Positions 7,142-64,000 of a stretch of DNA of 64,000 nucleotides are shown here, one piece after another. The notes below the pieces were generated by a model. It was not told the DNA's origin. It saw nothing but the letters and a program-made list of their open reading frames with translations, and did no database searches. A program made the translations under genes and the position numbers. Positions within the stretch are counted from its first letter, which is position 1. The number at the start of each line of letters is the position of its first letter. The stretch lies in the NCBI GenBank assembly GCA_000934665.2, contig JYFJ02001620.1:1-64000 (forward strand). Reading direction: 5' to 3'. This DNA comes from Catajapyx aquilonaris. Lineage: Eukaryota.

Positions 7142-7638
7142 TCATGCAAGGAGCTGCAAAAGCTTCCGTTGATCCAAGGTGCTGCAATAAATTATATTTT
7201 ATTAGATCGACTTACACAAATAATTATTCGGGTAAGTAGCATGCGAAATAGTTTGCAGATTACCAGGCGTACCAGGTAGTATACTCCTCATCATTTAGAT
7301 TTTCCATGAGAATCTTCTTAACATTTTCAGGAGGATTAAGTCCCAAATTAGCTGCTCTTTCCCATCTTTCCATCCGAGATATGTTCATGCAAGGTCCGAA
7401 TTCGCAATCAAAGTCAAATTCCTTCAGCTGCGCCAACTCATTTTGCCGCTTATTTGCTTTCACAGTCCGGGCAGCTACAAATAATAACAATAATAAACCT
7501 TGTGATAAACGAGTTCAGTAATGATGTAATGAGGAATGTAATATAATTATAATTACCTTTTCTGGCACTGCGGGCTTCTTGATCCTTGGAAGGCTTGAAA
7601 AAGCGCGTGATTTGAGTTTGATTTCCTTCTGCAGACAT
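7142..7638 (-). CDS. POLD4: DNA polymerase delta subunit 4 (p12)
   Basis: Exon ~7557-7638 gives MSAEGNQTQITRFFK (PIP-box QxxIxxFF). Exon ~7266-7476 gives LKEFDFDCEFGPCMNISRMERWERAANLGLNPP, the diagnostic p12 motif. The last exon (CTLDQRKLLQLLA*) is less certain. Confidence 0.88.
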
Positions 7639-9904
7639 TTTGGGGCCCAATGCCTTCGGATCCCCTGCTTCTACGATGCAACTCTGCAGGCAGCCATTGA
7701 TTTCTACATGTGTGTGTGACGTCTCGACGCCAAGGTTGGAATTGCGAAAATGTTGCAAATATTCGCGCACACTCCATCTTTGCAAAACTGTTGACAGTTT
7801 TGTTGTTACCATTATTTATAGTATCTATCAGTACATTGATTGTGATTCAATTATGTTTAACATACATGTTGTATATTTTTGCAATAATTATTTTCGCCAG
7901 AATATTTTTGCTGTAGTACCAAGCATTTAGCCTTGGATAGAATGAGTTTGTGCCATAGCCACATCGTGCAAGTGGCAGTTGTGATGCCATGGTTTGTGGA
8001 TACGTGGCGACAACTGCAGCCCACTAGCGGAACTTGCTCAACATTTTTTTTTCCTTTCCTTCAAGGACCGGCCTTTTCATATTGCACGCGATAAAATTTT
8101 ATCATGGTTTATTGCTGTTAAAAGTTCCATTCATACAATCATGTCCTTATGAATATTTTCAAATTGCATGTCTATAGCAGTAATACTGCAAAAAGAAAAA
8201 CGGCGAATGAGTTTTCTCATAAAATTTATACGTTATTTTTATAGCCAACTACCCCACACGCCTTAATATTATGGGTGTGTTGCACAGTTGAAGATAGACC
8301 GTGACAATACTTGCTTATCTGTGTCCTACAAATGCTAAACTCTCGGCGGGCCACGTCTACAGCATTCGGGTATTCAACTGAGTATTTCGGAGAAACGAAC
8401 TCATTATGTAAACAATATACTGCTGACAGGGAATTAACCAGAAATTAATTACAAGGAGAAACATGCTATTTTAGACATACTGAGTTCGGTGCCACTGACC
8501 TTGTCTGTGAATAACATTTTTTATTTAGTTTTGGTTCTGTTAAGCATTGCTAGCGCTTTTGACAACAATGCAGTAAGTCAATGTTAGTATGCTGCGATGT
8601 CGTCTGTGATATAGTGCAGAAAATGTTATTTATAATGCAATAAAAGTTAATAAAAAGCAGTCGCCTTATTTAATTGGGAGTAACATTTCCGGCGTTTTGG
8701 ATCAGGTGACTGTTGAATTATTGATCTAATTTTAACATGGCAGAAATTAGATATACGTATACTGTATAATTATATAGTTCTCATGATTATCTGCATAATG
8801 AGATTGAGCCAGATGGCGTAGTTGCAGATTCCAAGGACTCTACTGCACACTGCTCAACGAGGACATCAGTAGGCCTATCTATAGAAGAGGCTCGTAATCA
8901 TACAAACTCGTAAAATATGTAGATTCCTTGAATCTTTGAATCAGCAGGAAGTCATTATCGCCTGTTGACGTGATGGTGACAGGAAGCAGACAACCAGGCA
9001 AGTCCTATAGGTAACCCACAGACGACACGGGACACAACCTACCCTATACGTATATGACCAGGCCATAGGTCACGGTCAGTAACATGTCAGCAAAACAGAC
9101 TACTCTGGACAATAAAGAGGCTGCAAAGACGTCTATGCTCCACTTGATAGGTACGTAGCCTAGGTAATAGAGATAAGAGTTTGTGCATAGTGAAATGATA
9201 TCTTTTGGGTAAAGTAAATGGGGCACAATTTCTAATATTATGGCGCGGGAAAGCTTCTGGATGAAATGTCAAAGGTGTTTGGCGTTATTAACCTACTTTT
9301 CAGTATATATCGTACCGGTAAGCTCTTTGATCCTCCACAATATTAACACTGTAATGAAGTTCGTATCGAATGCAATTCCCGCTCGTAAATAAATATTAGC
9401 TTATTAATTCTATGGTTTTACGAGCTTATAATCATTATGTGCAGTGTTCCTTCTCTTAAAGGGCATAATGACTTAAGTGATGCAATAATTGGCCTTGTTT
9501 ATCATGCTCTGTGAATTTTGTTACGTTTTAACCCAATAGCGTGACATTTGTGCCATTAGGTATGCCCTTGGCTTTGAATGGTTCATTCAAGGTCCAGCAA
9601 AGCACTCACGTGACCATACCTTTCGTTTGCGGACCACATGTAGCATTGTGCAGTAATCAAACATAATTGCACAGATTATAGTAACATTCACCTTGTGGAA
9701 GCCTTGATTGCACGTATAACTCTGCAAGTTATAATTACTGAATAACACAATAACTATTCAATGGTGTACAGTGTACTCAATGTATATTAAAAAAAGAGAT
9801 GAAAGAGAGACTGGGCGAGAAAATATTTCTCTTATTTATTACACAATAATAATACTTTCATATTGATGGCATTCTCGTCGAAAAGTAAACATTCGCATTT
9901 AGAA

Positions 9905-35589: not shown

Positions 35590-38500
35590 TCAAACAAGTC
35601 GAGCCATCATTGCGATAATCACAGGTAGGATTGTCCAGTAGGTGGGACACAGCCCCAGGGCACCATTGCAGTTCCTAATCTCCTGGACCATTCGCACGTA
35701 ATCGTCGTCCAGCGTTTCCAAGTAAGTGCTGCCTTGCAACACGTTAACGAGGGCCGTTGAGGAATCCTGGGGAAGAGAAAATTTCTGACTTCCTGTCGAT
35801 GTAGATAGACCAAGGGAAGGGTGGGGGAGAGACGAGTAGATGGGAGGGGAATGCAGGACTTAATTTCCTGGTATAGGGACACACACACAGGGCAGCAGGC
35901 AGGGGGGGAAGGGTATAGGAAGGAGGAAATTACCTTGAAGAGCAGGTCGGACTGGCCTGCGAAACTTCCGAACAGCTTAAAGGCTGATTGCTGGGGACCG
36001 AAGAAGTCCGAGGCTCGAAGGAGCGCCAATCGTATGTTTTCCATTTCGTGAGCGTCTTTTGAACCTCGGGTCATAACCTCAGGACAGAATGAGTCATTCC
36101 ATTAATTTTCGTGAGACAGCAAAAGGTGGACCTGTCCTTCATTGTATGATACGTTTGTCTTTTTTTCCCCCGTACATCAAAGGGTGGTTGCTCTCATTTT
36201 CTCACTGCTTTCGTATAGGTAATCTACACCTAGATTACAGCGACAGTTTGGGTGTTACAACCAATCTCGAAAATTGCTGCAATTAGTCACCATAGTAACT
36301 GCCAAACTTCTGGTACAATCTTTGGTTATAAACAGATGGGGTCGAAAAAAAAGTGACATTCCCACTTGGGACACTTTCGAGACAGTAAAGAAATGCGGCA
36401 GATCATGCAGCCATTAAATATATAACACAGTGTAACAAGTCAGCTTCAACCAGCCTTCATGTAAAGGATTGTATTGCAAAACTTAATGTAGTGTGTAAGA
36501 ATGCAATTTTCTCCCACAACTTTGTATTTAAGTTTAAAATAAAGTTCATTCCACATGTTGTATATACTCATACAAACTTCTTGAACTCCATAATTTCCTT
36601 AAAAGTATCGCAGGTGCAGGTAATATTCTACTATATTTTTGCCATTCACCCCTTTAAATTAACTATCATCAAGTTTATAAATATTGTTTCCTAACCTGTA
36701 TATCAACAGGTAATTATTTAATTGGTTTAAACAGATGATACCAAATAGAAAAGGTGAATAAACGGTTAGTAAACCTCCGTCCAAGCCTCCATCCGGCAAG
36801 GAGATGTGCTAATATTGCAATATCTTTATAAGCACACACACACCAGGTGTACCGAAGTCACGAACAGGATGTTGCGTGTGGTAGGCTATACCTTATGTGC
36901 AGGTACGCGTCCCCAGTGGCAGGAAGCATAATTGCCCACCGGCATCGTGCCTCCGTCTTTACACAGCAAGGAAAAGTCCTCAGATCGCAACCCTCTAGAC
37001 CAGCTCGCATTATTCATGCCATCTGCAAATAATAAAAAAGGGTCAAGTGCAATGGAGCAGGTCACAAAAGGAGCGAATCTGATGTTGAATATTCTTGACA
37101 TGTTTATACCTGTGTTGGAAGGCACAGTGACGTGCTTCACAAAAGCAACGTCTCCTCCGCCTTGAACCAAACACCTAAAGGCACCAGTGTAGCTGTAGAA
37201 GGCTTCGCTGCTGTCTGCTGCACACTTGGAAGGTCCTCCTTGGTACAGCGGAATATTCTGCGAAGAATGCCCTCCTGGTGGTGGCACTGCAAAAAATGTT
37301 GCCATTATAATATTTTAAAAGCCGCCTTCAAATTTATTTATTATCGTTATATGTTTAATACTTTCTCTCACCAATGACATCTTCACCTGCACACAAGGCG
37401 CACATGCTATCTGGATTGTCCCTGTCCGGATCGTTCTCTGGCAGCTTGACCCCTGGAACGCAACTCTGGGAGAAAAAGTCGCCCATGGCTTTTGCGAAGT
37501 TGCAGTTGGTCGGAAATATGAGTCCCTTCTCTCTCAGCACGTAAACGGGTATGTTCCAACCTTTCAAGAGTGAGTATGTGTAACATGAGTAATTAGCGTC
37601 ACTCCAGACACGTTTCGAGGGTATCGATGAAGTCTGTACCTGCCGTTCTGCCGTAACCAGTGTGGCAGGACTTCTTATTATGCAGGTCTTGAACGGTTCG
37701 GATGCCTGATCCGGATCTAATTACTGCCACAGCGTAATAAGACGCGTCCAGATTTCCATACTGCTCCGAGAGAATCGGGGTCAGCTTGTACTCCCTGAAA
37801 GTAATGCAACATGTTAGTTTGGATCCACACTTTTGTTGGCTGTTTTTGTCCTTTGTGTCATGTTAGTTGTTGCGAGGTTAATGTAAAACTATCTGGTTAT
37901 TGACCTACCTGCCAGCACTGTAAACCAGGCCGGCGTCTAGGGCTATGACGTCCGCTACTCCGTCCTTGATCTTCCGCATGCAGTCCACGGGCGAGTCTCC
38001 AGAAACACATCCAATTTCGGGCCGAATCCTCCGGGCAAAGGCAGCCAGTCGAAAGGCCTCACATTTTGACTTTTCGGCCAAGCTCGTAACGCAAAACTTC
38101 ACGTTGTCTTTGTTTCCTGTACAGCTGGGCTTCTCGATGGTCAAAGTGTAGTTGGCTGTAAATTGAACACATTATAGTAACAGGCCAGAGGATAAACAAT
38201 CGCAATAACCAAAAAAGGTTGTCATATCTTTGCAAATTTCAGTTCCTTGTCAACTTATAATATGCACATGCTTTAGTTGATTTCCGTACTTTATTCTCCA
38301 TTAAATGCAGCTAGCATTGTGAATGCTAGGAGGTATCCTGTTGGATATGCAAGTCGTCTACCACCCACGGCAGACGAGTTGCCTATAATGCAGGATATAC
38401 CCAACCATTCATATACATTAGATTGGCGGAAAGGCCAAAATATCTTCAATAAACTCAAAATTATTATTATTTGCAATTGCCAACATGTAAACCCAAATCT

Positions 38501-47647: not shown

Positions 47648-47649
<2 letters not shown>

Positions 47650-47714
<65 letters not shown>
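47650..47714. repeat. (AAT)n microsatellite, ~21 units
   Basis: Perfect TAA/AAT run. It explains the poly-Tyr ORF at 47580-47786. Confidence 0.97.
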
Positions 47715-47963
47715 TAATGTTCCCCTCTCTGAATTATTCTTCTCTGGGGCAATTTCATTACGTATAATGTGGTAATAGCACATCAATAAATCTCACTCTT
47801 ATATGGCATATTTGCAAACACATCAATAAATATTACATATACCGCCACAATATGCAAAGCAACAGTTTAAAAAATTGAGCAACACATATTTTTATATCTT
47901 GCCTGTTTCGCATCACATTTAAATAAATCTAGGAGCTAACTGGTACTTATGATAACACCACTG

Positions 47964-50860
47964 TTATTCCTTCTTGTTGCAGAATTCTTCCGGCTTTTGA
48001 TCCGTTTGGCAGATGAGTTTGGCGCAATTTTCGAGGGAAAGAGCTTGACCGACACCTGCACATGATAAAAACAGCACAAAATATTTGACGCAAATCCAAA
48101 AATAAATTGCCCTTACCATTTCCTTCCTCTGCGTCGTTCTTTTTGCCTGGAAAAAAAAGACACAGCATGAGAAGCATTTGTTCCCAGGTCGGATTGTCAA
48201 AATAATTGTGTTCCTCCAAAAAATAATTGCGACCATCATACTTACCGTATTCTTGAGGAAAGGACACTGCCTGTGGGTCACTCTCAGTGGAATACTCCCC
48301 GTCCACTGCCACCACCTTGAAGATGTACACCTGCCTGGGTACCAGTCCTCTGAGGACCACGCTGTCCTCAAACCTCTTGGGCTCGCTCTTCTTGTACTCG
48401 GTCCGGTCACTCCTCCTGTACATCACATAAAATCTGGACCCGCACACCCCTTTCAAGTTGGGCAACCAAGTGATCTTGACCTCCGCCGTGTCGTCCCTGG
48501 CAGACGTCAGCTGTCTCCAAGTGAAGCCGGGCTTGTCCGGTCTCAGCATCGCGTTTGGCCTGTCGCTCATGGTGCTTTTCTCGGTGAACTCGCCAAACCC
48601 TTCCCCTGCATTGTTGCTGGCCTTTATTGTCACCCTGTACTTGGTGTCCGGTTCCAACCCACCGAGTATGGCGCTGGTTTGATTCGGAGCAGCAGGAGGA
48701 TTCCGGATGTGACGAGGACCGATGTAGATCCCGTTCACGATCTCGTAGTAGATCGTGTACCGAGTCAGGACACCGTTTGGTTCCTTGGGCTGTTTCCACA
48801 CCAGGTACAATGCTGATGAGCCAAGAGGATAGGCGTCCAGGGAGCTGACTGGACCTGGAGGACCTTCAGGTGTGTAGAAAGAGATGGTCTTGCTTGGAGG
48901 ACCGTCGTATTTCCGGTTGTAAGCCAGTACTCTGAGGTAGTTCTTGCAGTTTGGAGACAGGTCGTGCACCGTCGCTTCGTTCACATCGCTCTTGATCAGT
49001 AGCTCACGCACGTTTCCTTCTCCGTTCTTGTCTGTCCATATCTGAATCTGAAAATATTAATCAAGAAAATGCCATTACGTCGTATTTTCGCTCATCAGGC
49101 GGTATGACTCGTATGACAAACCTTGTATCCTTTGAAGTATCCACGGACTGAATCGCGGTCGACCGGATCCCACCTGATGCTGGCCGTTTGTCCGTCGATG
49201 ATGTTGACCAGGGTGACATACCTGGGAGGGTCCACAGGTTTCCCTTCACCTGAGTATCCAATAACCTCTCTGGGCTTGGCTCTGGAGGGACCCAGCTCAT
49301 TTATGGCTATCACCTTCACCCTGTACTTCTTGTACGTCGGTTGGCTTGGTACCATCAGGCTGGACACTGTCCAGTCGTGGATGTCCGCCACTGTCCAGAG
49401 TTCCCCAGGGATGTCCCTCCGGAAGTACACGCGGTAATGGAACCCAGGTGCACCATGCTGGTCTTCAGGAATGGGCTGAAACAATTCCAATTTACATAAA
49501 AGTACCCTGTATGATGATAAATACTTACGTCCCAAGTGATAACCAAATTGTCCGGAGCCGTTCCTGCGGCACGCACCACGTCCGGGTTCTTGTCCGGAAC
49601 TTTGAGAGGCGACTGACACGCATCTGAAGACGACGAGGGTTCAGACGCCCCGACCTTGTTGATGGCGATAACCCGGAAGGTGTAGTTGGTCCAGGGCTTC
49701 ATGGGTACGGACACCTTGTAGCGTGTCTCGCTGGGAGGTACGGAGTCGCTGTCTCCTATCCAGTTGCCAGGACTGGAGCTGGTGCTGTACTCTATCTTGT
49801 ACCTGAGTATGGGCGATCGGTTGTCTCCAGTCGGACGCCATCGGACTGTCGCGTCATCCTTTCCGCAGGTGAGTCCAGTCACCTTTGGAGGGTTGGGCAC
49901 GTCCTGTATGACCAGGCTCATGGTCGAATGGGCCTCGTCCAGTTCTGTGGATGCTTCGCAGGTGTATGACCCGCTGTCCCGCATCTTTGCCCGCACGATG
50001 AGGAGTGAGTTGTAAGGAGCTCGGGTCATTCGTTGTTCCTCTTCGAGGTCGATGGGCTGACCATTTTTGAGCCATCTGACCGTCGCGGTCAGAGATGGGT
50101 CGGTCACCACTCTGCATGCAAGCTGGACACTAAGTCCGACCGGAACCTCATAGTCTTCTGTTTCTAATATCCTAGTGCGCTCTGAAACATTTGACCAAAT
50201 CATTGCCAGAAGATTGACCATCTTTAAAAAAAAATTAGAACAATAAATATTGGTTTGTGTGATAATTTCAGTTGTCAAAAATTTAATTACTTCATGCTGC
50301 CAGTACTACACGTACTGTACAGTACAATCAATGCCGCACTTTATTCGATGTGTCGGATACTCTGGATACAAACTCACCTCTTACGATAAGTGATCCTTCG
50401 TACTGAGCAACACCCATAGAGTTGCTGGCACTGCATGTGTACTTTCCCGAATCAGAAGGCTGCACATCCCTGCATAAATAAACATCTCATTTAGGCAAAC
50501 TTGTCGAGACGAATAATGTCGGGACACACTTACCTGATTTTCAGATCACCTTCCGACTGGACCGTGTACCTACTTCCGACGAGGTTATGCCCGTCTTTCA
50601 GCCAAACAAACCGAGGCTTCGGATCTCCTTTGGCTCGACAGGACAATGTCACAGTTCTTCCGGCCACTGTCACCTCATCCTTCATGAGTTTTGTAATCAA
50701 AGGGGATGTTCCGTTTTTGCAATCATCTCCTGGAAAACAGTGTTTATGGCGTGGTAAAGCTCCATTAGAATTAACCTAGTGTATACTTACCATAAGCTGA
50801 GTGTCCCAATTGCAGTAGAACCACCAGAAGAATCGCAGCAGTAACAGTTCTGGGACCCAT
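47964..50860 (-). CDS. Secreted neuroglian/L1-CAM-derived protein, 762 aa: signal peptide + 2 Ig + 5 FN3 + short Cys-rich tail; no TM or cytoplasmic domain
   Basis: 8 exons with GT-AG sites and consistent phases: 50791-50860, 50534-50729, 50378-50469, 49529-50181, 49122-49475, 48246-49047, 48117-48146, 47964-48055 (2289 nt). Contains L1-family motifs DSGSYTCEASTELD, QDVPNPP, GDNRSPILRY, PWTNYTFRVIAINKVG, VPDKNP, GYSGEG, VRGYFKGYKIQ, FYTPEGPPGP. Confidence 0.9.
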
Positions 50861-52772
50861 CTCGACTGTGTCTTCTTCACTTGGCAGCCTCTTCCTTAGA
50901 TGAAGTCTCGTTGCCTCCTGCCAAGAGATGCTACGTCACAATTTTACCGTATTGATGACCTGGTAGGCCGTCTCGATGGTCCATTTCCAATCAGATCAGG
51001 TTCGCAACAAAAACTTTTATGGGAACGCACCACATAGTCTAGGTCATGAGGCTCACCGGCAAGGTGAGTCTGGTAAATGAATGGTTCCGCTTAAAAACAA
51101 GCATCTCGTGAAGGTGGATACTGAAATTTTCAGGCAAAATGATCGCCTAAATATTTTTTGCAACTAATATGCAACAGTTTATATCACGCAGCAATGTTAT
51201 GCATGGTAACGGGATTGCTGCAGTACCGGTACTTCCTGTTTTGCACTTAAAAATAATTATTCTATCATATTGTTTGTTTTGCCATTCTAATTTGCAAGAT
51301 CTTTTTTGTCACTTGAGAATCTCTTTTAAATCGCTAAAATGTTTCCCTGCAAGAGATATGAGAAATAAAAACTGTACCTAGCAGAATTATAGTAGCACAT
51401 AATTATCACGAGAAATTTTTCGATATAGTTGTATTTAGCTGACAATAATTCTGTTTGTACAATTATTGATATTAGCATAGCATTTTTCATGCTCTTTTGT
51501 CTAAAAACTATCAGAGGATCCATGCATTTCCATCAAGCTCCGCAAAACAGACGCAGGCTAATAATAACTCTTGATCTTCTGTAAGATCAACGCCTAGCAC
51601 TATAGTGCTATAGTGAATAAAACACTTCAAAATGTGGTTTGCACAATTCCTTGCAAGATCATGTAGCGGTTTGCAATCAAAATGCATCCATTATATAACA
51701 GGTTGACCGCGTGTGCAGAGAAGTAGTGCTGGCATCCATCCAAGTAACGAAAATCTATTACGTCTAGAGCATGTGTACCTTATTCAAATGCCACTAGACC
51801 AGCATTCCTCGGCGTATTCAGCAAAGAACACCGGCACAACGGCCACAACCTATAAAAAGTTGGTCTACTAGTGAATGAACAATGATGTTGAGGATGGTCG
51901 CATAACTGCACCCGAAGAAATAAAAACAATCTGGTTTTTATATAGAACATCCTGGTTTTATTTACGAGAAACCATACATGGCTACAAACAGCGTCATCCC
52001 GGCAAATGAGGGCATATTGAAATAATCATAAAATAATTCGCAAACACATACACCTGAATAAGTGATAAGGTTCACTTAAACTTTCATGCAAACTCACCAG
52101 TTTCTTGCGTTTGTCACGAAATATTCTCTTGAGATAGAAGCGTCGTGTCGGTCATGTTATTATCATATCTCCACGAGAAAACTCTAATAGAGCAATGTTG
52201 GTTGCCTAAATCGCAGGATCGCAAAAAAAACTGCATCAGCAATATATTATCCTGTTTCTTCCTCATCTAACAGGATTATAGAATATGAGTTTGTCTGCAG
52301 ATTGGGGAGCCACAAAGTATATTCGCACATTTTCTTCCATTAAATCTAAAATATTTGAGTTTCTGTTCTCCTAAAGCAATCATAAATAATTTGAACTTAT
52401 TTAAACTCATCAGTTATTCCCCCTAACATATCTGAAGCTGCAATTAAATTATTGCAATTATTATATGTGATTACTTGCTTTCCACATAGTAACTTGAAAT
52501 AGACAAAATGTAGTCAAACAAGTGCAAATAGTTACTGGTACAGTACTACTGTCAAAATCTACACAGAATATCTGTAGTAATTATGGAGATGGGTGCAGGT
52601 TGTCAGTAATGGGGTAAAATGCTTCTCTTTCATTTTTTATTATAAAAATAACTTCCAAATTGAAGTACAAGGTTAAGGGATGTGCCACTCTTGAGTACAG
52701 TTACTGATGTATTTTCTAATTTGAAGGTAACAAAAAAAACAACTTCACAAACAAAACCCTTTTGTTGCATCC

Positions 52773-55700
52773 TCAATTTTCCTTGCAGTAATCTTGAGGT
52801 TTCTGGGCCACTGTGGTGAAAAGTTGAGCGCACTGGATCAGAGTGAGAGAATTGGGTCCAGCCTGACAGTCTCGGACTCTCTTGAGCATTGTCAAATAGT
52901 CAGTCTCAACTGGTTCGATTGGGACAATGTGAGCCACAGTGTCCTGTGAATAAAAAAGAACAATGGCTTTAAAAAACCAACAATGGCAATCTTAGGTAAA
53001 AAGCTTTCTTTTTAAAGTCACAAGATGCTGGGGAAAAAGGACAAGCAAAGCACAAGACTCACCGACAAAAAGTTACCCTCAGCTTCATATGGAGTGAACA
53101 AGTGGAAGTTCTGCTCCCCATCTTCACCCCCAAAGACATCGTTGATGTTCAGCAGAGCTTCACGAATGTCTTCCACCGCCACAGAGCTCTTCTTAATACT
53201 CGTCACAATCTGTTCCAACAAAAATAATCCTTTGAATTCACATATAAATACTAGCTTATTTCTGAATACAGTTTGTAAGCTTGACAGTCATAACCTCATT
53301 CATAACAACTTGGTAATTGGTATGAAAGTAGACTCACCTTACTCCCTGGAACCTTTCCCCAGTTGCATTGCTTGTACTCCTCAACTGGTCTGAGCCCACC
53401 TTCCTTGCACAGGAGACGGAAGTCAGAAGACTTGAGCTGGGAAGCCCAAGGGGCCTCACTGTGACCATCTGCATATAAAAATGTCAGATTTAGGCACACA
53501 GATTAAACATTAAAGGAACTGCAAAAGCAGTTGTCAAATAACTAAAGCAAATTTTCACCTGTATTGGATTCAACTACAAGGTGTTTGGTAAAGGCAACAT
53601 CGCCATGGCCTGAAGCCAAGCATCGGAAAGCACCATCATAGCCATAGAAGGCTTCGTGGTCAGTGGTTGAGCACTTTGAAGCTCCATTCCTTGTGTACTG
53701 GGGGCCACGCGATGTTTCCACCACTGTAATGAAAATCTTTATAATATATTTCTCAAACATAACATCCTCATAAAAAATAGATATCACAAATATTACGTAA
53801 CATTAAAACTGTAATTCTTCTAAATGCACGAACTTAGGAAAAATTGAACAACAGCAACATTTAGAGAAAAAAACCAAACTTTCAATCAATTGCATGTACT
53901 GTACGAAAACAATCGTTGAAAAGTTTTTTTTGTTTTCTTTGTCTCAGCTTACCATCCACATCCTCGCCTACACAAATGGAGCAGAGGCCTTCAGGATTGG
54001 TTCCCTGAGGATCATTCTTGGAGTCTTTGGCTCCTGGTGCACAACTTCCACCAGCAAAGAAGTGAGACATGGCAGTAGCATAATCACAGTCAAATGGATA
54101 AATTAACTGCTTTTTGGCCAGAACATGAGCAGGGAAGAGGAATCCTGCATGGCACTTGAATCCAGAATGGCATGACCTCTTTCCCCTCAGGTCTTCCACA
54201 TTGTGAATCCCTGAGTCTGCCTTGACCACTGCCACACTGTAGTACCGGTAGGGGCTGGTTCCTTCCACAGTCAAGCTCACCACAGGTATGAAGTCCTCAT
54301 CAGAATAGACTTCCTTAGAGTATCGCACCATAATGTCAGCTTCACCTCTGTTGATCATTGCAGCACACTGGTCACGACTTTCAGCCTTGACACATGCAAT
54401 GCCAGGCCTAATCCTTCTTGAGTGAGCTGCGGTTGCAAATTCCAAGCATTTTGCTTCCTGCAACATGGTGTGTGTTGGCAACGTTAGTGAACAGTTCTTG
54501 CTCCGGACACATTTGTAAAGGATTGGTAATAATTTTCATGTAAGGTTTGCTGCACTATATTGAAACAGAGCATTCCTTATATTATGGAAAATTAATTAAA
54601 ATGGCTACTGGTACTCATTAATTATTATTAAAACACCAACAAGTCACAGAAATGCTTAATGGAAAGACTGGCAATAAAGTTTCAGCGAAGAAGGAATGAA
54701 AGAGGTACCTCTCCATCATTAATATTTTATGCTGATAGATAGTTTCTCACCTGCTCATTTCCAACCACACACCACCTAATGAGCTTGTCTTGGCTGCAAC
54801 TTGGGCGATCAATTGTTACATTGTAGTTGGAATGATCAATGTATGAAGACACAGACACAGGGAAGGGCATGTTGTACTGGAAGTCACGCTTTCCCATTCC
54901 CAGCACTTTGGAAAGCCAATCGTTGTTGAGAGAAAGGTACTTGAGCTGCCTGAGTTGCCGTTTGATTTCAATGCCATGAATGGGATCTGCCTCGTTTCTC
55001 ATGACAAATGCACTCCAAGGTCGCCCTGCCCAGGTGCAAGGTTCATTTGAAGTTACTGGCATCAGTTGACCATTGGGGCAGAGAAGACTGAAGTCTTGCG
55101 CATTCTCATACTTCAGCACACTCTGAAGATTAATGGGCACAAATTAGTGATAGGAACATAAATAATATACATCAGAGATCCTAAATCAGTGCAGTTCAAA
55201 CTAGATCACTGTCCTTCAGGCCACTTTTATTATCAAATAGTGTATATGACAAAATAAACTACTACATGCCATGTACTGTATCACAACACAAGCCTACGTC
55301 AGATAGATTCAAGTTTTGTGTGGATTGCAGAATATTTATTGAGGTAGAACAAGCTCACCTGAACAGCACTCATCTTTGTCCAAGCAACATCTCCATCACC
55401 TTGAGTCAAGCACCGGATTGTCCCCTCGTACCCAGCGTATACGTCATCACCATCACAAGTCTCAGGATGTGAGCACAGATCACACAATGAATGGTATTCC
55501 CTCTCTAAGAAGAAGAAATAATCAGTGAAGATCATACAAAAATTAATGGTGTTGTCCATATTTTTAAAACTTACTGAGTTTCTTGCTGACATCCTCATCA
55601 TTTCCCCATATGAAGGGAACGCAGGATGGCCCAAAGAATTGAGCCACAGAAGAAATTTCATTCTCCAGTGTAGACTTGCTTGCATCACAGTTTAATGGAA

Positions 55701-56545
55701 TGATTCCATCATGCATCAGCTGTAGAAAAAAATATTATAAGAGTATTTCCTGATTTTCCAACAAGTAAGAGTAAAAAATTCCATACCTGTGAAATAGGAA
55801 CTCTCCAACCAGCCGTTCGGTCATATCCCGTATGGCATGACTTCTTGCCTCGAAGATCATTCAAATTATGGACCTCACCACTATTTTTAATCAATGCAAC
55901 AGCACCGTACCGATAATCATCTGGATAATTTAAATACAATTACTTAATAAGCCAGGAGATCCTGCAGTTTTATAAACTTACCATTTGCTCCAGCCATACT
56001 TCTGATCTGCTGAATGACAACCAAATCTTCTCCATATAATTTGCCAGCTACATAAATATCTTCAGGGTCAAGTAGAGCAAAGTCTGCCTTTTCCTTCGCA
56101 ATTTTGTGAATGCAGTCAAGTCTGAAATTGTTGAACGTATAGGCACCAAAATACTCTCACACATGTTGCTATGCTGATGGTTACATGCTGCGACTCTAGC
56201 GAGCCTTATGCCATACGTGTAAGAAACTCACTTGTCTCGGCCTGATACGCAGTTGAGGTTCACCTTTCCAAGACCATTGACGGCCTCAAGCATTTCCAGA
56301 CAGGAACTCATTACATTCTCCGGAACACAAATCCTCAGTCTTGTAAAGAGCATGTTCTCAGTTTGTTCTTGCTCCTGCTGCTGTTCTTGACCTCCTTTAT
56401 ATTGCCCTAAAAAATGAAACACATTAGGATTAATCACACCGGTATAAGATTATAACACTGATTAAGCAGTAGAATATTACAAACCATGGCCTAAGTGAAC
56501 AACTGCGCAACAGGCAGCCGCAAAAATGATAGTCTTAAGCCCCAT
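52773..56545 (-). CDS. Tf-E: secreted transferrin paralog; N-lobe ligands intact, C-lobe degenerate; Gln-rich N-terminus; Cys-containing C-terminal extension; 12 exons
   Basis: Signal MGLKTIIFAAACCAVVHLGHG; LRICVPEN...CVSGRDKLDC; LLDPED; YRYGAV; SCHTGYDRTAGW; YAGYEGTIRCL. C-lobe: ADIMVRYS, SCHSGFKCHAGF, KVPGSK. Ends RVRDCQAGPNSLTLIQCAQLFTTVAQKPQDYCKEN*. Confidence 0.93.
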
Positions 56546-56574
56546 GTTCCTAATGTGAATGGCAGGACCTCAGT

Positions 56575-56765
56575 GCAGGCTGGTATAATTTATGCGCTTT
56601 ATATACCCGCATCGTGATGAATGTCATATCTGACGTATGTCACTGGGAAATTCCACGCAAAAAAACATCCAATGGCTAGCTGCCAATCAGTGATTGATGG
56701 ATTCTCAGAAGAGGTCAATAGCAAGGGCCAAAGAGGGCATCAATATTATGAACTGGAAATTCCAG
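56575..56765 (-). promoter_or_regulatory. Tf-E core promoter: TATA box with kappaB and STAT motifs
   Basis: TATATAAA on the minus strand at ~56598-56605, about 55-60 nt upstream of the ATG; GGGAAATTCC at 56645-56654; TTCTCAGAA at 56702-56710; TGGAAATTCCA at 56754-56764. Confidence 0.6.
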
Positions 56766-57455
56766 AACCATAAAAACTTCGGCAAGTACCATGCTACCAC
56801 ATTCTCATCAAACATACCGACACTGTCATTTCACCTTGTTCAGGGAAAATGATAAGTTGATACAACTTTTGGTAACATGCTTTTCCTGCCTCCAGAAGGG
56901 CTTTGGTGTAAGAAGATTAAAAGATTTTCTGAGCTTAGATAGTATTATGAACACTTGGGGTCATCAATTAGGTCACTGATATCAAAATGCCTCTGACATT
57001 TCATTATAAATTCTTAGAATCAAGTTGCAGTGGAATCCAATTCCTTGCATAACGAGGTCATATTAATGGAGATTAAATACAGAAAAATGTACATTCTATG
57101 AAGCTGAAAAAAATGCTGAATTTCCACATTGTCAAAGATGCATGTACGAGAATAGAAATTTGTATAGAAATTATTCAATTTTTCAACTGACCAAACTATT
57201 AGAGATGTCTCAAACGCCTATTACCAAATGACCCACCTACATCAAGTTAGTGATCCACTGGAGATCACAGCCCTAAAAGTTTGTTGGTATATTTCTGAAA
57301 CACCCTGTACCAGAGAACGTTCTGTATAGGACAGTAAAACAAATATTGTTATTGGTACAGCACAATCAGGTGATACTTTAATTCCTACATCATATTCAAG
57401 TACAAAATGATATTGGCATGTTTCACCAACTTATCCACAGCAGGTCGTTGCTGCA

Positions 57456-60400
57456 TCACTGCTTGGTGCACTGCGCCACCTTCTCCACTAAGTCCCTGTA
57501 ATCAGGCTGGTCTGGACTCAGGTGGGTGACACCAACCTAAAAAAAAAGAAGTCTTGTTAGAACTTCCTGCACATGCCAAAACGACAAAAAAACAAAACAA
57601 AAACGCACCGAAAATATCCCTCCTTTTTCTCCCATCTTGAAACTGTTGGTGTAGTAGTTGGCAAAGAATGACATATCCAACACAGCAGACTGGATGGACT
57701 CTTTTTCTCCCTTGATCTTCTTCCCACTGGTTACCACCTTATTCTCCAGCATCACTCCAAAATTGCAGGCCCTGTAGTCAGTCAGCTGCATATGTCCTCC
57801 TTCTGGGCAAACCAGCTTAAACTCCTCAGCTGCTTCTGCAAATGCAAGTAAAGTATCGCAATGAATAATTTTTCTCTGGTACATTTTTTAAGAGTTCATG
57901 ATCACTTTTGCAAATACTCACCAGGATGGGCCAGGATGTAGGAGTGCTTCACAAAAGCTATGTCACCCTTCCCATCTGCCAAGCACTGGACTGCACCCTC
58001 ATCATTGTAATACCTCTCAAAATAATTGGGCTTGCAGACATTGTCGCCGGACTCACTTCCAACACAAAGTGAGCACAGCTTGCTGTTCTTGGCTCCTGGA
58101 ATGCAACTGGCTGCAAAGAACTCTGCCACTTGGTCCTCCAGATCACAGACCTCATTCTTGATTAGTCCATCACTAATCAGTTCATAAACAGGTGCAAACC
58201 AACCTAAAAATAACGCAGCAAATCAATCTCAGTCCCTCATTTAGGCCATTATATGCACTCTCTTTACACAGAAACTTCTGATTATATACAATAAATATCT
58301 CCACTTATTTGTAGATTTTATTCTTAATATGCCATTTGCACAACAGGCATTATGGCATCAATAAATTTGCCTACATGAATACCACCATTACTCATTCGAC
58401 AATTGTGCTCTCAACAAAATCAGATATCCACAATAACAGATTGTCCTTTCATAATAAAACAGGTAGGAGAGGTATTTAATAAATGTAACTTTTCATGAAG
58501 AACTCAGGTCAACTTACCAGCGTAAGTGTCAATAGAACTGTGGCACGATTTCTTTCCTTTCATGCTTATGACATCAACAATATCTGATTCGCTTGCCTTT
58601 ACCATTGCAACTGCAAATATGTGCTTTCCCATTCCATACTCCTCAGATGCAACAGGCACAATGTTCATTTTCCTACCAATAAGAAAAGAAATTACGAATG
58701 TTTCCAATACCGAGATGAGTCAATCCCTTACTTTCCATGGGAATGAATTAATGCTGAATCAACCACGGTGGCATCAGCTTCATTCTTGTTCATCTTCTCC
58801 ATGCAATCCAGCTTTGAATCAGACTTCACACATGAGATCTGTGGCACTATTCTGTTGCTAGTGGCTGCCATTTTCATGCGATCACATTTCTCTGCCTCGA
58901 TATCATCAGTGACACACCACCTGAGGTTCTTCTCAGGATTACTTTTGCAGTAAGGTCGGTCCATCACTTGAGTAAAATTGCCTGTAATAATGAGAAATTA
59001 GAACTGGCAAAATAGCATAAATCACAATGCCTTATTGCTATGAGCAAATGATCCATCATTACTATGTTATGAACGATTATGAAATTAAGTATTCATAAGG
59101 CACATTAGAGCATAAGAAACTTTACATTTGTCATTGTAGTCATTAACTGGCACTGGGTTGGCCAAGTGGTGCAAGTAATCGCCATCATCTCCATGAAGAA
59201 CAGTCTTGTACCAACGGTAAGTCTCCTCATCTGAATTTCCCTTTGTGTGCAGTTTTTCAAGTTCAGCCTTGATCTTCTCCACCTTATCTCTAAAACATAC
59301 AGCATATTGAAATACATCCTTAAATGCAGAACTATGGAAGTACAGGCAGAAAAGGCCAAGGGATACACTTCATTGGAGGGAAAGCAATACTGCAATAAAA
59401 CTTTATAACAAATTTACCAATGAGGATCTCTTTAAAAGTAAGTGCCCCTTGCCCATGCACTTACTTTTGCATTGTGCTGCTAACAACAAAAGCTTTGTGT
59501 GGACGGCAGGCCCATGGACAAATGTCAGCATCCTTCAGATCTTGCTTACTTCCATCCGGGCACAAAAATTCATACTTGTCATGTTCAGGCTTGGGGTTGG
59601 GCTTGTCCAGCTGCAATATATCATGTCACATGACAGATCGGCATACATATTTAAAAATTACCCTTCACACATACCTCGAAGTACTCAATGACAGTCTTAT
59701 CCTTGGTGAAAGTAACATCACCATTTCCTTCAGTAAGACACTTGAGTGAGCCTTCATACCCAGCATACTCGTCTTTCCTGCTGCATGCCTTAGGGTCATG
59801 ACATAGTGAACACAAGTTATTGTACTTGTTCTCTGTAATGAGAAATAGGAAACTGATAATATGATAAATGATGTCTGAATTATTATACATGTGCTTCCAC
59901 GAATTGATATAAAATCAGAGTGAAACAAAGTCAAGAAGATGTTGCCATTGAGTCTCAAAATTGGGATTCTGGAGAAAACTACACATTGACTTACTCAGCC
60001 TAGCATCAACTTGAGGATTTTCATTCCACATGCCAGGAACACAGGACGATTGGAAGAAATTAGAAACACTTGAAATTTCTTGTTCAGGGTATGACATTTT
60101 ATCGTTGCAGTTCTGAGGCATTATATCATCATGCATAAGCTGAAATAAATTTATCACGTGCTTATTAACCCAGTTAGCAGAACCTGAGCAAAGGCTGCGG
60201 AAAAAACCTTACCTTTGAGATAGGAATACGCCAACCAGCGGTTCTGTCGTAGCCAGTGTGGCAAGTCTTTTTGCTCTTGAGATCATTTAGGCTGCCTATT
60301 TGTGCTTCCTTCCTCACAACAACCACTGCCTTGTAGCGAGCTGCATCTGAAAAAATTAATCGGTGCATAAGAAAATGCTTCCAGAATGGGTTTCTAGTAG

Positions 60401-60828
60401 TAAGAGAATTTATGTTACCATTCTCTCTGTGTCGCATTTCTGTCATTACATTGCATTTGTTTGGATAGTAATGGTTCACGGCATACATCTGTGATGGTGT
60501 GAGCAAACCTACATCCATACTTCCTTCAGCCAGCTTCTTCATGCATTCCGTGCTGCAGATAATTGCAACAGTTAATTTTTTAAAAACATCTTCCAGTTAA
60601 TCTTTTACTCACTCGTCTTTGACAACTTCACATTCAAATGATGTCTCCACATCTTTCTTCATCTGCAGGCAGTCTTCAATAAATGATTTGTCAACGCCAT
60701 ATCTGAATGTTTCTGTAACATAATAATTAGAATTAAACTCATGATTAAACCAAGAATGATATATATATCATACCTTGTTGGGCATGCGCTAGAAGTCCCA
60801 AGCAGACCACGATAACCAACCTCCACAT
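57456..60828 (-). CDS. Tf-F: secreted transferrin paralog; N-lobe partly conserved, C-lobe degenerate; ~13 exons
   Basis: Signal MWRLVIVVCLGLLAHA; LLTPSQMY; RYKAVVV; TCHTGYDRTAGW; YAGYEGSLKCL; WACRPHKAF. C-lobe: VVDSAL, HIFAVAM, SCHSSIDTYAGW, YYNDEGAVQCL. Ends VEKVAQCTKQ* with no hydrophobic tail. Confidence 0.92.
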
Positions 60829-60849
60829 CTTTGCCTGTCCTGTATCAGA

Positions 60850-60888
60850 CTGCAGCATTTCCACCTCTCGATTTGGGGTTTATATAGG
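60850..60888 (-). promoter_or_regulatory. Tf-F TATA box and initiator-like element
   Basis: Minus-strand TATATAAA at ~60879-60886, followed about 30 nt later by GCAGT (Inr-like). This favours the ATG at 60828 over the one at 60858. Confidence 0.5.
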
Positions 60889-62233
60889 ATTTGTCCCTGT
60901 GACCGGTTCCACCTTGCCACAGGGAAGTGGGGGAAAAAAATTCTTCCTCCTCCTCCCCTGCTGTACCTTTCCTCCCAAACGTAAATCACTCACTATATTG
61001 CCTCCTCTGACTAGCAAGTAGCCTACATGATTATGCTCTCAAATGGTAGTGCTGTAACATGCTGATTTATAATCATTCCACTTACATCATGATACCACAT
61101 GTAGTATCTTCCGTCATTAAAAAGTGCAATGTGAAGTATGCATGGCTACAGATCTCAAACCACTCCAGTTATGAAGGTAATGATGTCCAATTATGATAAC
61201 TAGGCCCTTTTAAGCAGCAAACTTGATCAAATGTGACAAGCCCTGTAACAAAACCTGCAGAAATCAGCATCATTAAATTGGAATATTTAGCTGCCAGCTT
61301 CAAAAACGTTCAATGACACATTTCCAAACTGCACTACGCAGTTAATGGCGTTATTTATAATAAGGAGACAAGCTATTGCTGAACTATAACCAAATGGCCT
61401 TGCAATAATCATGCACATTTTGGAAGGTATATTCATTCCTGATATTAACATAAGGTCAGCTTGAAAGTCATTTCCCCCACAGATCTTCTCCTACCAATGA
61501 GATGCTGCCTTCCCCGGTGGTACTCCTGCCCACCCCTCCAGCAGTAACCTTGGTCGTGATCTTCCTCAAGCCACACACACCTAACCTTGGTTGCACGACT
61601 TGATCATTAACCTGCCCATCTTCCAGATGCTGACAAAAATCTCCCCAACAGTAAAGCGAATAACTAGGCAGTATTTAAAAAAAAAAAATCAGGCCACCAT
61701 AAGGAACATCTCAAAAAAGAATGAGAGAAATTTCCTGGTTGAATTTCTGGGAAGTCGACCCTCCTGTGAGTTCTGGATAAAGCAGGAAAAATATTGTAGC
61801 AATATATGCCTCGGGCTTGAGTGAAACAAGTTTTAGTGACGTCTGCCCATATGGGCCAAACAATGAAACAAGGACATATCCATATGCAAACTCTATTTAA
61901 TATATTCTTCCACATATATCATCAATGCATCTGTACAAGTGCAATAAACCTTACCTTAACAACTGGCCTGGCAAGCACTTAGCAACAAAACCAATATTTA
62001 AATAAAGGGAGCCCCACCCTAAGTAAGGAAGGGTCACCTTTCCAGATTTACATAACCCTGCTCTTGAGTTATTAGCACAAGGAAGGGGGGACAAAAAGAA
62101 GTACTAGACATTGACCATGAAGGTTTAAACACCTTTTTATATATATAACAGTAGCCTCCAAGGTCACTCAATTTTTGCTGCGAATGGATATTGCTATGAC
62201 ACCAGTTTCAATGACACTTCTCAAAATTAAGCT

Positions 62234-64000
62234 TCAAAGCTTAGGTGTAATATTCCTCATTTGTCTTACTGCAGCCACCAACCGTGGAGGGAATCCCCTG
62301 GTAGCAGTGCCATAGTCATCAGGAGGTATTTTCAGCAGACCATTTAAGTTCTGCAAGTTGTCACTCAAGGAAAATCCTAGGTCATCCAGGATGTTCCCCA
62401 GGTAGTCTGAAATGATCAAGTGCCTATTACGATCATGTCATTACATTCGAGCACTACGCTCTGCTCTCAATTCAACCCTGGGAGGTCTGCCAGTGCTCAA
62501 GGTAATTTCCCAGTTCATAAATGTCACCTCAATCATTACCAAGATATATGTGTAATGATTAAACCAGATTTATGTGTTGCAAAAGTACAAAATCAGTTTT
62601 TACTATTGGATTGCACGAGACAGTTAAAATATAATGATAACAATTCCCAAAAACAAGCTGACGTAAAAAAATCCTCCTCATACCTATGTCTGTAGAAAAC
62701 TGTTTTGCATCCCCTGCATTCAGCTCTCGTATCCTCATCAGCTGCTCAGCATATGCTTGACACGTTGCTTTGGCTATGCCTCCAAGGAGCACCTCCCCTG
62801 GGCTGACACCACTTCCTACTCCAGCACCAAACTCGACGCCCAACACCTGCCCTGATCTGCAGGCCTCCTCGAAGGATCTGCTGAGTCCAGGATTGTCTGA
62901 AAGCACAAAGGGCTCCAGATGCTGTGGTAGCATCATAAGATACTGCCCCACTTGGGTGATGTACTCTTGTGGTGAGAAACTAAATGATGGAAGGTCCGCC
63001 AACACTCGGGAAGTGTCACCAACACGTGCTGCGAGTAAATCTAGCTGTGTCGATACTGGTGCAAATACAACTTCAATTGATGTACGAGTGATATCACCAC
63101 AAGTTTTGGACGCCCACTCAGAAACTTCGCCCAAAAATGACTCCTCGTTTCGTACTCTGGCTATGAATTTTTGTAAACTGGTCACTTTTTCTGGCCTTAG
63201 CAAGACCTCTGTCATATCAATTGAATCCAACTTGGCAACAATGATGCGGTCCACTGCTTCAATCTGGGCAGCCATTTCTCCAGAACATTGCATAAAGCTC
63301 AGGCACTGTTGGAACAGCACCCAGTCCTCTTCACGCCGTTGTCTCTCCAGCTGCCTCAAAACAATCTTGTACTTGTCAATGTAAGATCCGAGGTATGATT
63401 TCAGAGCATGATGCAGTCCCTCAGCACCAGATCCATCAGTGAAGCGCCAGCATCTAGCCACACTGTCTGCTATCACACCTGGCAACCGAGTCACTGAACG
63501 AGCCAACTCACGAATGGATTCACCTAGGTCTGACTTCACCAGCTTAGCTGCATTGCTCAAAAGGCACGCCTCTTCAATTGTGCCATACCGGCATACATAC
63601 AATACATATGGAGAGTACGTTGCTTTTGTAAACTCCATTTTTTCTGGGGTGCCTTCTTCCAAAAATGAGGACTCTGCTGCCTTATAGAAACGAGCTGAGT
63701 TGTCCTTGAGGTCACACAGGAATTGCAAGTGATCCTCTTGAGCCTGCTGCTTTAAGCCAGCTTCAATACAAAACTCCATTGTTGGGTCCAGGCTTGATAA
63801 TACATCTGTGTGTAACGCCACTAGCAGTGAAGCAGTTGCTGCGGAACCAAACACAGCCCCACACCATCTGGCCTGATCATGCCAGTTTGATAAGACATGA
63901 TCGTAAAACCGCGCAGACCAATCAAGAACACCAGCCTTCGCATCATCCTCTGACTCAACCAATTGTCGCCACCTATTCACCAGGGATGTTCGTTCGCATT
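62234..64000 (-). CDS. COG7: Conserved oligomeric Golgi complex subunit 7 (3' part; gene continues beyond the window)
   Basis: Exon 62684->64000 contains EDWVLFQQCL and LPSFSFSPQEYITQVGQYLMMLPQHLEPF. Last exon 62234-62406 gives DYLGNILDDLG...VRQMRNITPKL*. Confidence 0.92.

Follow-up and report, generated by a model that had tools for sequence, protein, structure and literature searches.

Chimeric genes arise through the partial duplication and exon shuffling of neighboring genes, which is a general and well-known route. In the present study, we analyzed a 64,000-nucleotide stretch of DNA from the arthropod Catajapyx aquilonaris (GenBank assembly GCA_000934665.2, contig JYFJ02001620.1, positions 1 to 64,000; hereafter, the window). 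Two adjacent genes in this window carry the same Cys-bearing C-terminal peptide, one encoding a transferrin (Tf-E) and the other a neuroglian-derived protein with immunoglobulin (Ig) and fibronectin type III (FN3) domains (hereafter, Ig/FN3).

Several described systems resemble the two carriers or their tail. The T peptide of acetylcholinesterase forms an amphipathic helix, with a series of conserved Trp and other aromatic residues, for binding to a proline-rich partner, and has a Cys near its end. The secretory tailpiece of IgM and IgA, which is about 18 residues long, carries an N-glycan site and a single Cys at the penultimate position. Hemolin is akin to neuroglian and keeps four N-terminal Ig domains. 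The two chains of crayfish pacifastin are covalently linked. PMC5943944 describes alternative C termini of acetylcholinesterase, namely, the H peptide, which is a glycosylphosphatidylinositol (GPI) signal, and the T peptide (WAT), which is encoded by a terminal exon and attaches the soluble subunit to anchors. The IgM/IgA tailpiece is presented as transferable to other proteins, in which it drives covalent polymerization (PMC8413284, PMC13741831). Hemolin of Lepidoptera appears as a soluble protein of the Ig superfamily in PMC11999971, and pacifastin is described in PMC3012084 as having a heavy chain with three transferrin lobes and a light chain that is a protease inhibitor. In Drosophila, the core proteins of the septate junction include both Neuroglian and Transferrin 2/melanotransferrin (PMC8006247, Table 1).

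We propose that the Ig/FN3 gene is a chimera that originated inside the transferrin cluster. This reading, which takes the tail, its likely source, and a tethering role as one explanation, has a probability of roughly 0.5 in our judgment. The tails are located in the following features.

47964..48055, minus strand: predicted terminal exon (exon 7) of the Ig/FN3 gene; 30 tail codons, 3 Cys, stop at 47964-47966, acceptor ...TGTGCAG/G
52773..52943, minus strand: terminal coding exon of Tf-E; end of the C-lobe, canonical Cys, tail, and stop
52868-52866, minus strand: canonical Cys codon of Tf-E
52865-52776, minus strand: 30-codon tail of Tf-E, followed by the stop at 52775-52773

An earlier note based on the letters of this DNA (hereafter, the sequence-only reading) claimed that the two proteins end in the same peptide, and both copies are present at these positions on the minus strand. 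The ungapped alignment of 21 residues has the 9 identities that were claimed and a BLOSUM62 score of 53, and the stop follows closely behind the last Cys (3 residues after it in Tf-E and 4 in the Ig/FN3 protein). The similarity withstood shuffling: none of 2,000,000 fixed-register shuffles scored at least 53 (mean -16.9, standard deviation 10.6, maximum 49, z 6.6), and 9 identities were attained by 12 of 2,000,000 fixed-register shuffles of one tail. Comparison of the Tf-E core with the 48,117 stop-free six-frame 21-mers of the window gave 112 for itself, 53 for the other tail, and then 28, and exponential fits of the background tail placed the expected number of matches of at least 53 in the window at 1e-5 to 3e-4. 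When each tail was searched against the window by tblastn, the other tail ranked first (reciprocal E 3e-4 and 8e-4); the next match (E 0.037) was out of frame within the POLD4 gene. Chance is excluded as the source of the similarity. We concluded from these alignments that the two tails are true homologs, forming a C-terminal module of approximately 30 codons.

The peptide has been conserved as a protein. Different codons are used at 7 of the 9 identical residues, as previously claimed, and replacement sites are unsaturated while synonymous sites are saturated: across 24 aligned tail codons, the proportion of synonymous differences (pS) is 0.74 and that of replacement differences (pN) 0.35. 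Identity at codon positions 1, 2, and 3 is 14, 18, and 9 of 24, respectively. Fisher p values were 0.005-0.033 for synonymous versus replacement changes and 0.019 for position 2 versus position 3. At 9 identities in 21 residues, conservation of the tails is close to that of the folded Tf-E and Tf-F C-lobes, in which 110 of 298 aligned residues (36.9%) are identical. These codon statistics show that purifying selection has kept the peptide in both genes. Since the codon-position pattern is expected only if both copies were long translated in the tail frame, it is our main argument that the terminal exon of the Ig/FN3 gene is real.

The 3' end of Tf-E was confirmed using contigs (Logan) of a public run, X1, the kind of which is not on record and which was compared over 47760-61500. 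A spliced contig of 1178 nucleotides covers 52722-52942 and, thus, the terminal exon, tail, and stop. Its joints (52942/53062, 53209/53338, 53468/53559, and 53723/53953) have CT..AC ends, corresponding to GT..AG on the minus strand. With 15 joints of this kind listed for Tf-E and Tf-F, the X1 contigs are most simply spliced copies of mRNA. The Tf-E transcript extends to at least 52722, with about 50 nucleotides of 3' untranslated region. Relative to the window, the X1 contig carries an additional A in the A-run of this region, at 52731. The remaining Tf-E features that concern us are as follows.

53209-53063, 53468-53338, 53723-53559, and 54457-53953, minus strand: other C-lobe exons of Tf-E, with the X1 joints fixed to GT..AG; PF00405
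56485..56545, minus strand: signal-peptide coding part of Tf-E exon 1; 20 codons and the first base of a Gly codon, intron phase 1

Six Tf-E exon translations from 53296-55939 match Transferrin PF00405 in Pfam (E 5e-23 to 8e-3). In the collections searched, which contain no close relative of the source arthropod, the closest protein matches are from a sea spider and decapods (41-44% identity), followed by mammalian melanotransferrins. The iron and carbonate ligands of transferrins are Asp, Tyr, Tyr, His, and Arg. In the aligned C-lobe of Tf-E (53559-54457), an Arg is replaced by Cys, an Asp is lost, and a His is replaced by Ser, at columns that we take to be the carbonate-binding Arg and the iron ligands Asp and His. 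Because these ligands are lost, the Tf-E C-lobe probably does not bind iron.

Tf-E belongs to a tandem array of six transferrin paralogs (9905-60900, minus strand), which have three types of C terminus. The GPI-signal-like character of these ends was judged by eye.

Tf-A, at about 9905, minus strand: hydrophobic GPI-signal-like tail
Tf-B, at about 15835, minus strand: hydrophobic GPI-signal-like tail
Tf-C, at 27426, minus strand: hydrophobic GPI-signal-like tail
Tf-D, at 35590, minus strand: hydrophobic GPI-signal-like tail
Tf-E, stop at 52773-52775, minus strand: Cys tail
Tf-F, stop at about 57456, minus strand: terminates 3 residues past the canonical Cys

The shared peptide lies beyond the transferrin fold as delimited by the paralogs of this lineage, in keeping with the sequence-only reading: Tf-F stops 3 residues past the canonical Cys, and beyond this Cys the ends of Tf-A to Tf-D are hydrophobic, as are those of the nearest Tf-E relatives (P0006-P0008). 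The C terminus of Tf-E is not of the GPI type because its tail closes on polar residues (by eye). In vertebrate serum transferrins, a second Cys 8-9 residues past the canonical one pairs with another Cys; at the column of this partner, Tf-E has Ile in our alignment. The paralog ends, the relatives, and this Ile rule out, for this lineage, the tail as a piece of the canonical transferrin fold. The exon at 48055 was also rejected as an alternative terminal exon of Tf-E: the last Tf-E intron is in phase 0 and the exon needs phase 1, and the tail frame would be left unread.

The Ig/FN3 gene consists of the predicted terminal exon given above and the following features.

50860-50791, minus strand: exon 1, signal peptide
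50729-50534, 50469-50378, 50181-49529, 49475-49122, and 49047-48117, minus strand: exons 2-6
48056..48116, minus strand: last intron, 61 nucleotides, GT..AG, phase 1

This seven-exon model has 795 codons and is stop-free, and every one of its introns (53-196 nucleotides) is GT..AG. Pfam identified I-set/Ig and fn3 domains over 47947-50775, and a protein search with the large FN3 exon yielded 5 matches among 5488 candidates, all of them insect neuroglians 1252-1259 residues long with 46-49% identity. In a tblastn search of the window with neuroglians, only residues from about 430 to 1116 of 1254 were matched, corresponding to Ig5, Ig6, and five FN3 domains; tblastn and Pfam revealed no neuroglian exon for Ig1-4, the membrane span, or the cytoplasmic domain anywhere in the window. 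Therefore, the gene has Ig5-6 and five FN3 domains only and departs from the L1-family layout of six Ig and five FN3 domains. Past the signal peptide, no 19-residue stretch of the protein has a Kyte-Doolittle mean above 1.39, which falls short of a membrane span, and the position of the neuroglian span is occupied by a hydrophobic relic of 9 residues and, after it, a basic patch. The X1 contigs give no cover over 47760-51890 and are uninformative either way on this gene. The G+C content is 0.525 in the gene body (48001-50000) and 0.35-0.46 in the surroundings. The introns are very short (53-74 nucleotides and one of 196), and the listed transferrin joints span up to 314 nucleotides. An (ATA)n microsatellite of approximately 24 copies (47649-47718) lies 250 nucleotides 3' of the stop.

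The sequence-only reading regarded the two carriers as unrelated, and this did not hold for the genes as a whole, which are adjacent and share a Tf-E-like signal-peptide exon. The Ig/FN3 gene adjoins Tf-E on the same strand across a gap of 1.9 kb (Tf-E stop, 52773; Ig/FN3 start codon, 50860). The signal peptides have 7 identities in 20 residues and a score of 35; both start with M-G and have T at position 5 and L-G-H at positions 18-20. This score was attained in 35 of 1,000,000 shuffles with Met fixed and in 7,369 of 1,000,000 block shuffles in which the n-, h-, and c-regions were kept apart. For the Tf-E peptide, that of Ig/FN3 is the top non-self 20-mer in the window (the next scores 23), and among the six pairs formed by Tf-E, Tf-F, candidate Tf-A, and Ig/FN3, it is the best (35 vs 13-24). 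Both signal-peptide exons end in phase 1 within a Gly codon, and the neuroglian block of the Ig/FN3 gene is bounded on each side by phase-1 introns.

At the other end of the gene, the second full codon before the acceptor of the last intron, read in the tail frame, is Cys (48062-48060). An ungapped alignment (10 identities in 31 residues, score 58) pairs this codon with the canonical Cys of Tf-E, which we regard as a hint only. No likeness in the tail frame was found further upstream of the canonical Cys; therefore, the homologous block begins just at the end of the transferrin fold. Another tblastx segment (48255-48317 vs 56220-56282) was dismissed as chance because neither gene reads it in frame and its identity is approximately 45%.

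Because the genes are adjacent and share a signal-peptide exon, one local chimeric event would explain the sharing without a general tag. We propose that part of a neuroglian paralog (Ig5, Ig6, five FN3 domains, and the membrane-span relic) was placed inside or beside a Tf-E-like copy. The resulting chimera would have kept the leader of this copy and the post-fold 3' part of its last exon, the latter being read via a new phase-1 acceptor just past the last, canonical Cys of the transferrin fold. The shared tail would then derive from a single local partial duplication within the transferrin cluster. We infer the direction, from transferrin to Ig/FN3, and the extent of the copied piece, since the DNA trace outside the coding tail is gone.

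Sequence comparisons place the tail at a former membrane-anchor site in both proteins, namely, that of the GPI-type signal of Tf-A to Tf-D in one and that of the neuroglian span and cytoplasmic domain in the other. Its most likely role may be that of a small helix-turn tailpiece that replaces the membrane anchor. Through its conserved Cys, which would form a reactive or intermolecular disulfide, the tail would tether or oligomerize the now-soluble carrier, the partner of which could be the same protein, the other carrier, or a common partner. A role in disulfide tethering or oligomerization is plausible in view of the Cys contents. The Tf-E C-lobe has 16 Cys, 13 of which are common to all eight aligned transferrins; the other 3 are at columns free of Cys in the other 7, one replacing the carbonate-binding Arg and two being in the tail. 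Among the 13 Cys of the Ig/FN3 model, 6 are common to all five neuroglians and 7 are not, including 3 in the tail. In both cases (the Tf-E C-lobe and the Ig/FN3 model), the extra Cys add up to an odd number. AlphaFold2 run on the two-sequence alignment predicted a helix at 9-18, a turn at K-P, and a short helix at 24-27, with a mean predicted local distance difference test score of 67. When the Tf-E last-exon peptide (55 residues) and the Ig/FN3 tail (31 residues) were modeled as a complex, the score was 0.02 against a mark of 0.34, in a run without controls. It is rather improbable that the tail acts as an anchor-replacement module in the fuller sense, in which two soluble offshoots of the melanotransferrin and neuroglian families, both part of the Drosophila septate-junction core, swapped their anchors for the same Cys tail and are covalently coupled to one another or to a common partner. 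If true, arthropod junctions or hemolymph would have a new device for assembly or tethering, functionally paralleling the T peptide of acetylcholinesterase.

Several points weigh against a chimera with a tethering tail. No DNA similarity between the two genes survives in flanks, introns, or elsewhere. The likeness of the signal peptides reaches only moderate significance (p about 0.007) when the conservative control is applied, and with the Ig/FN3 peptide as the query, other hydrophobic 20-mers score 30-32 against 35. The last Ig/FN3 exon was placed from sequence signals, with no X1 contig over it. The Cys parity of Tf-E is that of the C-lobe alone, and a free or intermolecular Cys in either carrier is a proposal only. 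The confidence of the AlphaFold2 model of the tail is modest. Furthermore, the amphipathic helix claimed in the sequence-only reading was not upheld because the helical hydrophobic moments were matched by 717 and 947 of 5000 shuffles.

Among the alternatives, the one that survives best accepts the same local duplication and regards the tail as a self-contained cap, closed by an internal C-x14-C disulfide, that has no role in partnering, oligomerization, or sorting. The spacing of 14 between two Cys is fixed in both tails, AlphaFold2 folds the tail back on itself as a helix, turn, and short helix, and no partner or additional carrier was found. However, both proteins have an odd number of extra Cys, and L, L, A, L, Q, K, and P have also been kept despite synonymous saturation, which exceeds the needs of a disulfide staple. 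We consider this cap to be unlikely, but to merit attention.

Another explanation is that the tail is a general portable tag, borne in this lineage by many unrelated secreted proteins, and that its two carriers are neighbors by accident. The sequence-only reading favored a portable tag; this was upheld in the exon-shuffling sense, in that the peptide moved between two gene families, but not in the sense of a general tag because no further carrier was found. As it had stated, no other local paralog carries the peptide: the six frames of the 64 kb contain no third copy, and in the six-frame scan no score of 25 or more linked the tail with the GPI-like C termini of Tf-A to Tf-D. Neither the motif nor a C-x14-C end was present in any of 31 proteins (25 transferrin relatives, 5 neuroglians, and P0031). 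A word-based protein search with the Tf-E last exon gave 4 candidates, none of them within the limit of E 10. Among 1.84 billion representative proteins, the tail profile had a single match, P0031 (E 2.9e-5 summed over 4 repeats), a Cys-free repeat protein that was rejected as a relative. The tail matched 0 Pfam families and its profile 0 PDB entries at E up to 10, and the ESM Atlas gave no usable match. A metagenome scan with two tail patterns matched 156 stretches, one of which (L001) passed tblastn; this was judged to be chance because it is an internal 13-residue stretch of a 287-codon open reading frame, is not C-terminal, and misses the first Cys. The source organism's own proteins are in none of the collections searched, and its genome is likewise absent from them; therefore, absence elsewhere is weak evidence against a wider tag. 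The Ig/FN3 tail is also a separate phase-1 exon, the form in which modules spread. On the other hand, adjacency and a shared signal-peptide exon are more simply explained by one local event than by an accident of position, and together with the missing third copy and relatives, they make a general tag improbable. The tail is a newly recognized selected module that has two known carriers and matches no described family.

Less probable still, 47964-48055 may be an untranslated relic of a lost transferrin copy, with Ig/FN3 ending elsewhere, for example, by read-through at the donor 48117. No X1 contig covers the Ig/FN3 gene, and the read-through frame stays open for approximately 57 more codons, to 47947. 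However, so old a relic would not keep the pattern of codon position 2 > 1 > 3 or 9 of 21 identities in one frame, and the donor, acceptor, 61-nucleotide intron, and phase all match the rest of the gene. Chance or convergence, for which the shortness of the peptides and the 18 of 53 score points supplied by Cys might be cited, is effectively refuted by the shuffles and the expectation in the window, and by both peptides being C-terminal in adjacent genes.

If a local chimera is the correct explanation, this locus shows how a new secreted protein is assembled within a tandem cluster, with a fragment of an adhesion gene framed by the leader and tail of a neighboring transferrin. A 30-residue peptide without a family has been kept by selection in two protein contexts, each time exactly at a former membrane-anchor site. 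Should the tail tether or couple its carriers, it would represent a natural and compact module for coupling that links two arthropod septate-junction families. If it does not, the locus would still be a clean example of exon capture.

The promoters of the two genes look different because a TATA-box-like element, TATATAAAG, precedes the Tf-E start codon by approximately 55-60 nucleotides (56560-56610, minus strand), and no such element lies upstream of the Ig/FN3 start (both by eye). Tf-F (57456-61070, minus strand) is represented by a spliced X1 contig of 2038 nucleotides with 11 listed GT..AG joints. The gene for DNA polymerase delta subunit 4 is at 7260-7815 on the minus strand (PF04081, E 4e-19), and the open reading frame upstream of it has a PIP-box-like Q-x-x-I-x-x-F-F (by eye). 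An open frame at 62559-63998 on the minus strand, which runs off the end of the window, corresponds to COG7, component 7 of the Golgi complex (PF10191, E 4e-69).

Similar to exon-shuffled chimeras, the Ig/FN3 gene has a domain block flanked by phase-1 introns that is joined to neighbor-like first and last coding pieces. In contrast to them, it took only the post-fold part of the transferrin terminal exon, through a new acceptor, and the event is old, with its DNA-level trace gone. For the proposed role of the tail, the nearest functional parallels are the acetylcholinesterase C termini and the antibody tailpiece. As in acetylcholinesterase, one family has both GPI-like ends (Tf-A to Tf-D) and a short peptide end (Tf-E). 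However, the tail has no sequence similarity to the T peptide, lacks Trp or an aromatic series, has 30 instead of about 40 residues, and is not measurably amphipathic, and the variants are separate paralogs rather than splice forms. The tail resembles the IgM/IgA tailpiece in being a short extension past the last folded domain with a Cys near its end. It differs in having no sequence similarity to the tailpiece, no Pfam match, two or three Cys with the last at -4 or -5, and no N-x-S/T in either copy; polymerization by the tail is a proposal.

The Ig/FN3 protein resembles hemolin as a soluble Ig-superfamily protein of the neuroglian lineage that has lost its membrane span; unlike hemolin, it keeps the other end of neuroglian (Ig5-6 and five FN3 domains) and bears a foreign tail. 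Pacifastin offers a loose analogy only: Tf-E is also an arthropod transferrin-like protein that may work joined to an unrelated protein, but it has two lobes, and no partner of the pacifastin type or shared tail is known. The second Cys of Tf-E follows the canonical Cys after a short S/L-rich stretch, as in the C-x8-9-C of vertebrate serum transferrin and ovotransferrin. However, Tf-E has Ile in place of the partner Cys, the vertebrate C terminus has nothing that corresponds to the Q-K-P...C part, and the arthropod transferrin relatives, unlike vertebrate serum transferrin, do not have the second C-terminal Cys. The comparison with septate junctions concerns the parent families. Tf-E and the Ig/FN3 protein differ from the Drosophila pair in having no membrane anchors, and the Tf-E C-lobe is devoid of the carbonate-binding Arg and of Asp and His among the iron ligands. 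Nevertheless, both tail carriers descend from the families of this pair, and the nearest relatives of Tf-E are GPI-type transferrins and melanotransferrins. Since both parent families belong to the septate-junction core of Drosophila, a common partner of Tf-E and the Ig/FN3 protein is conceivable.

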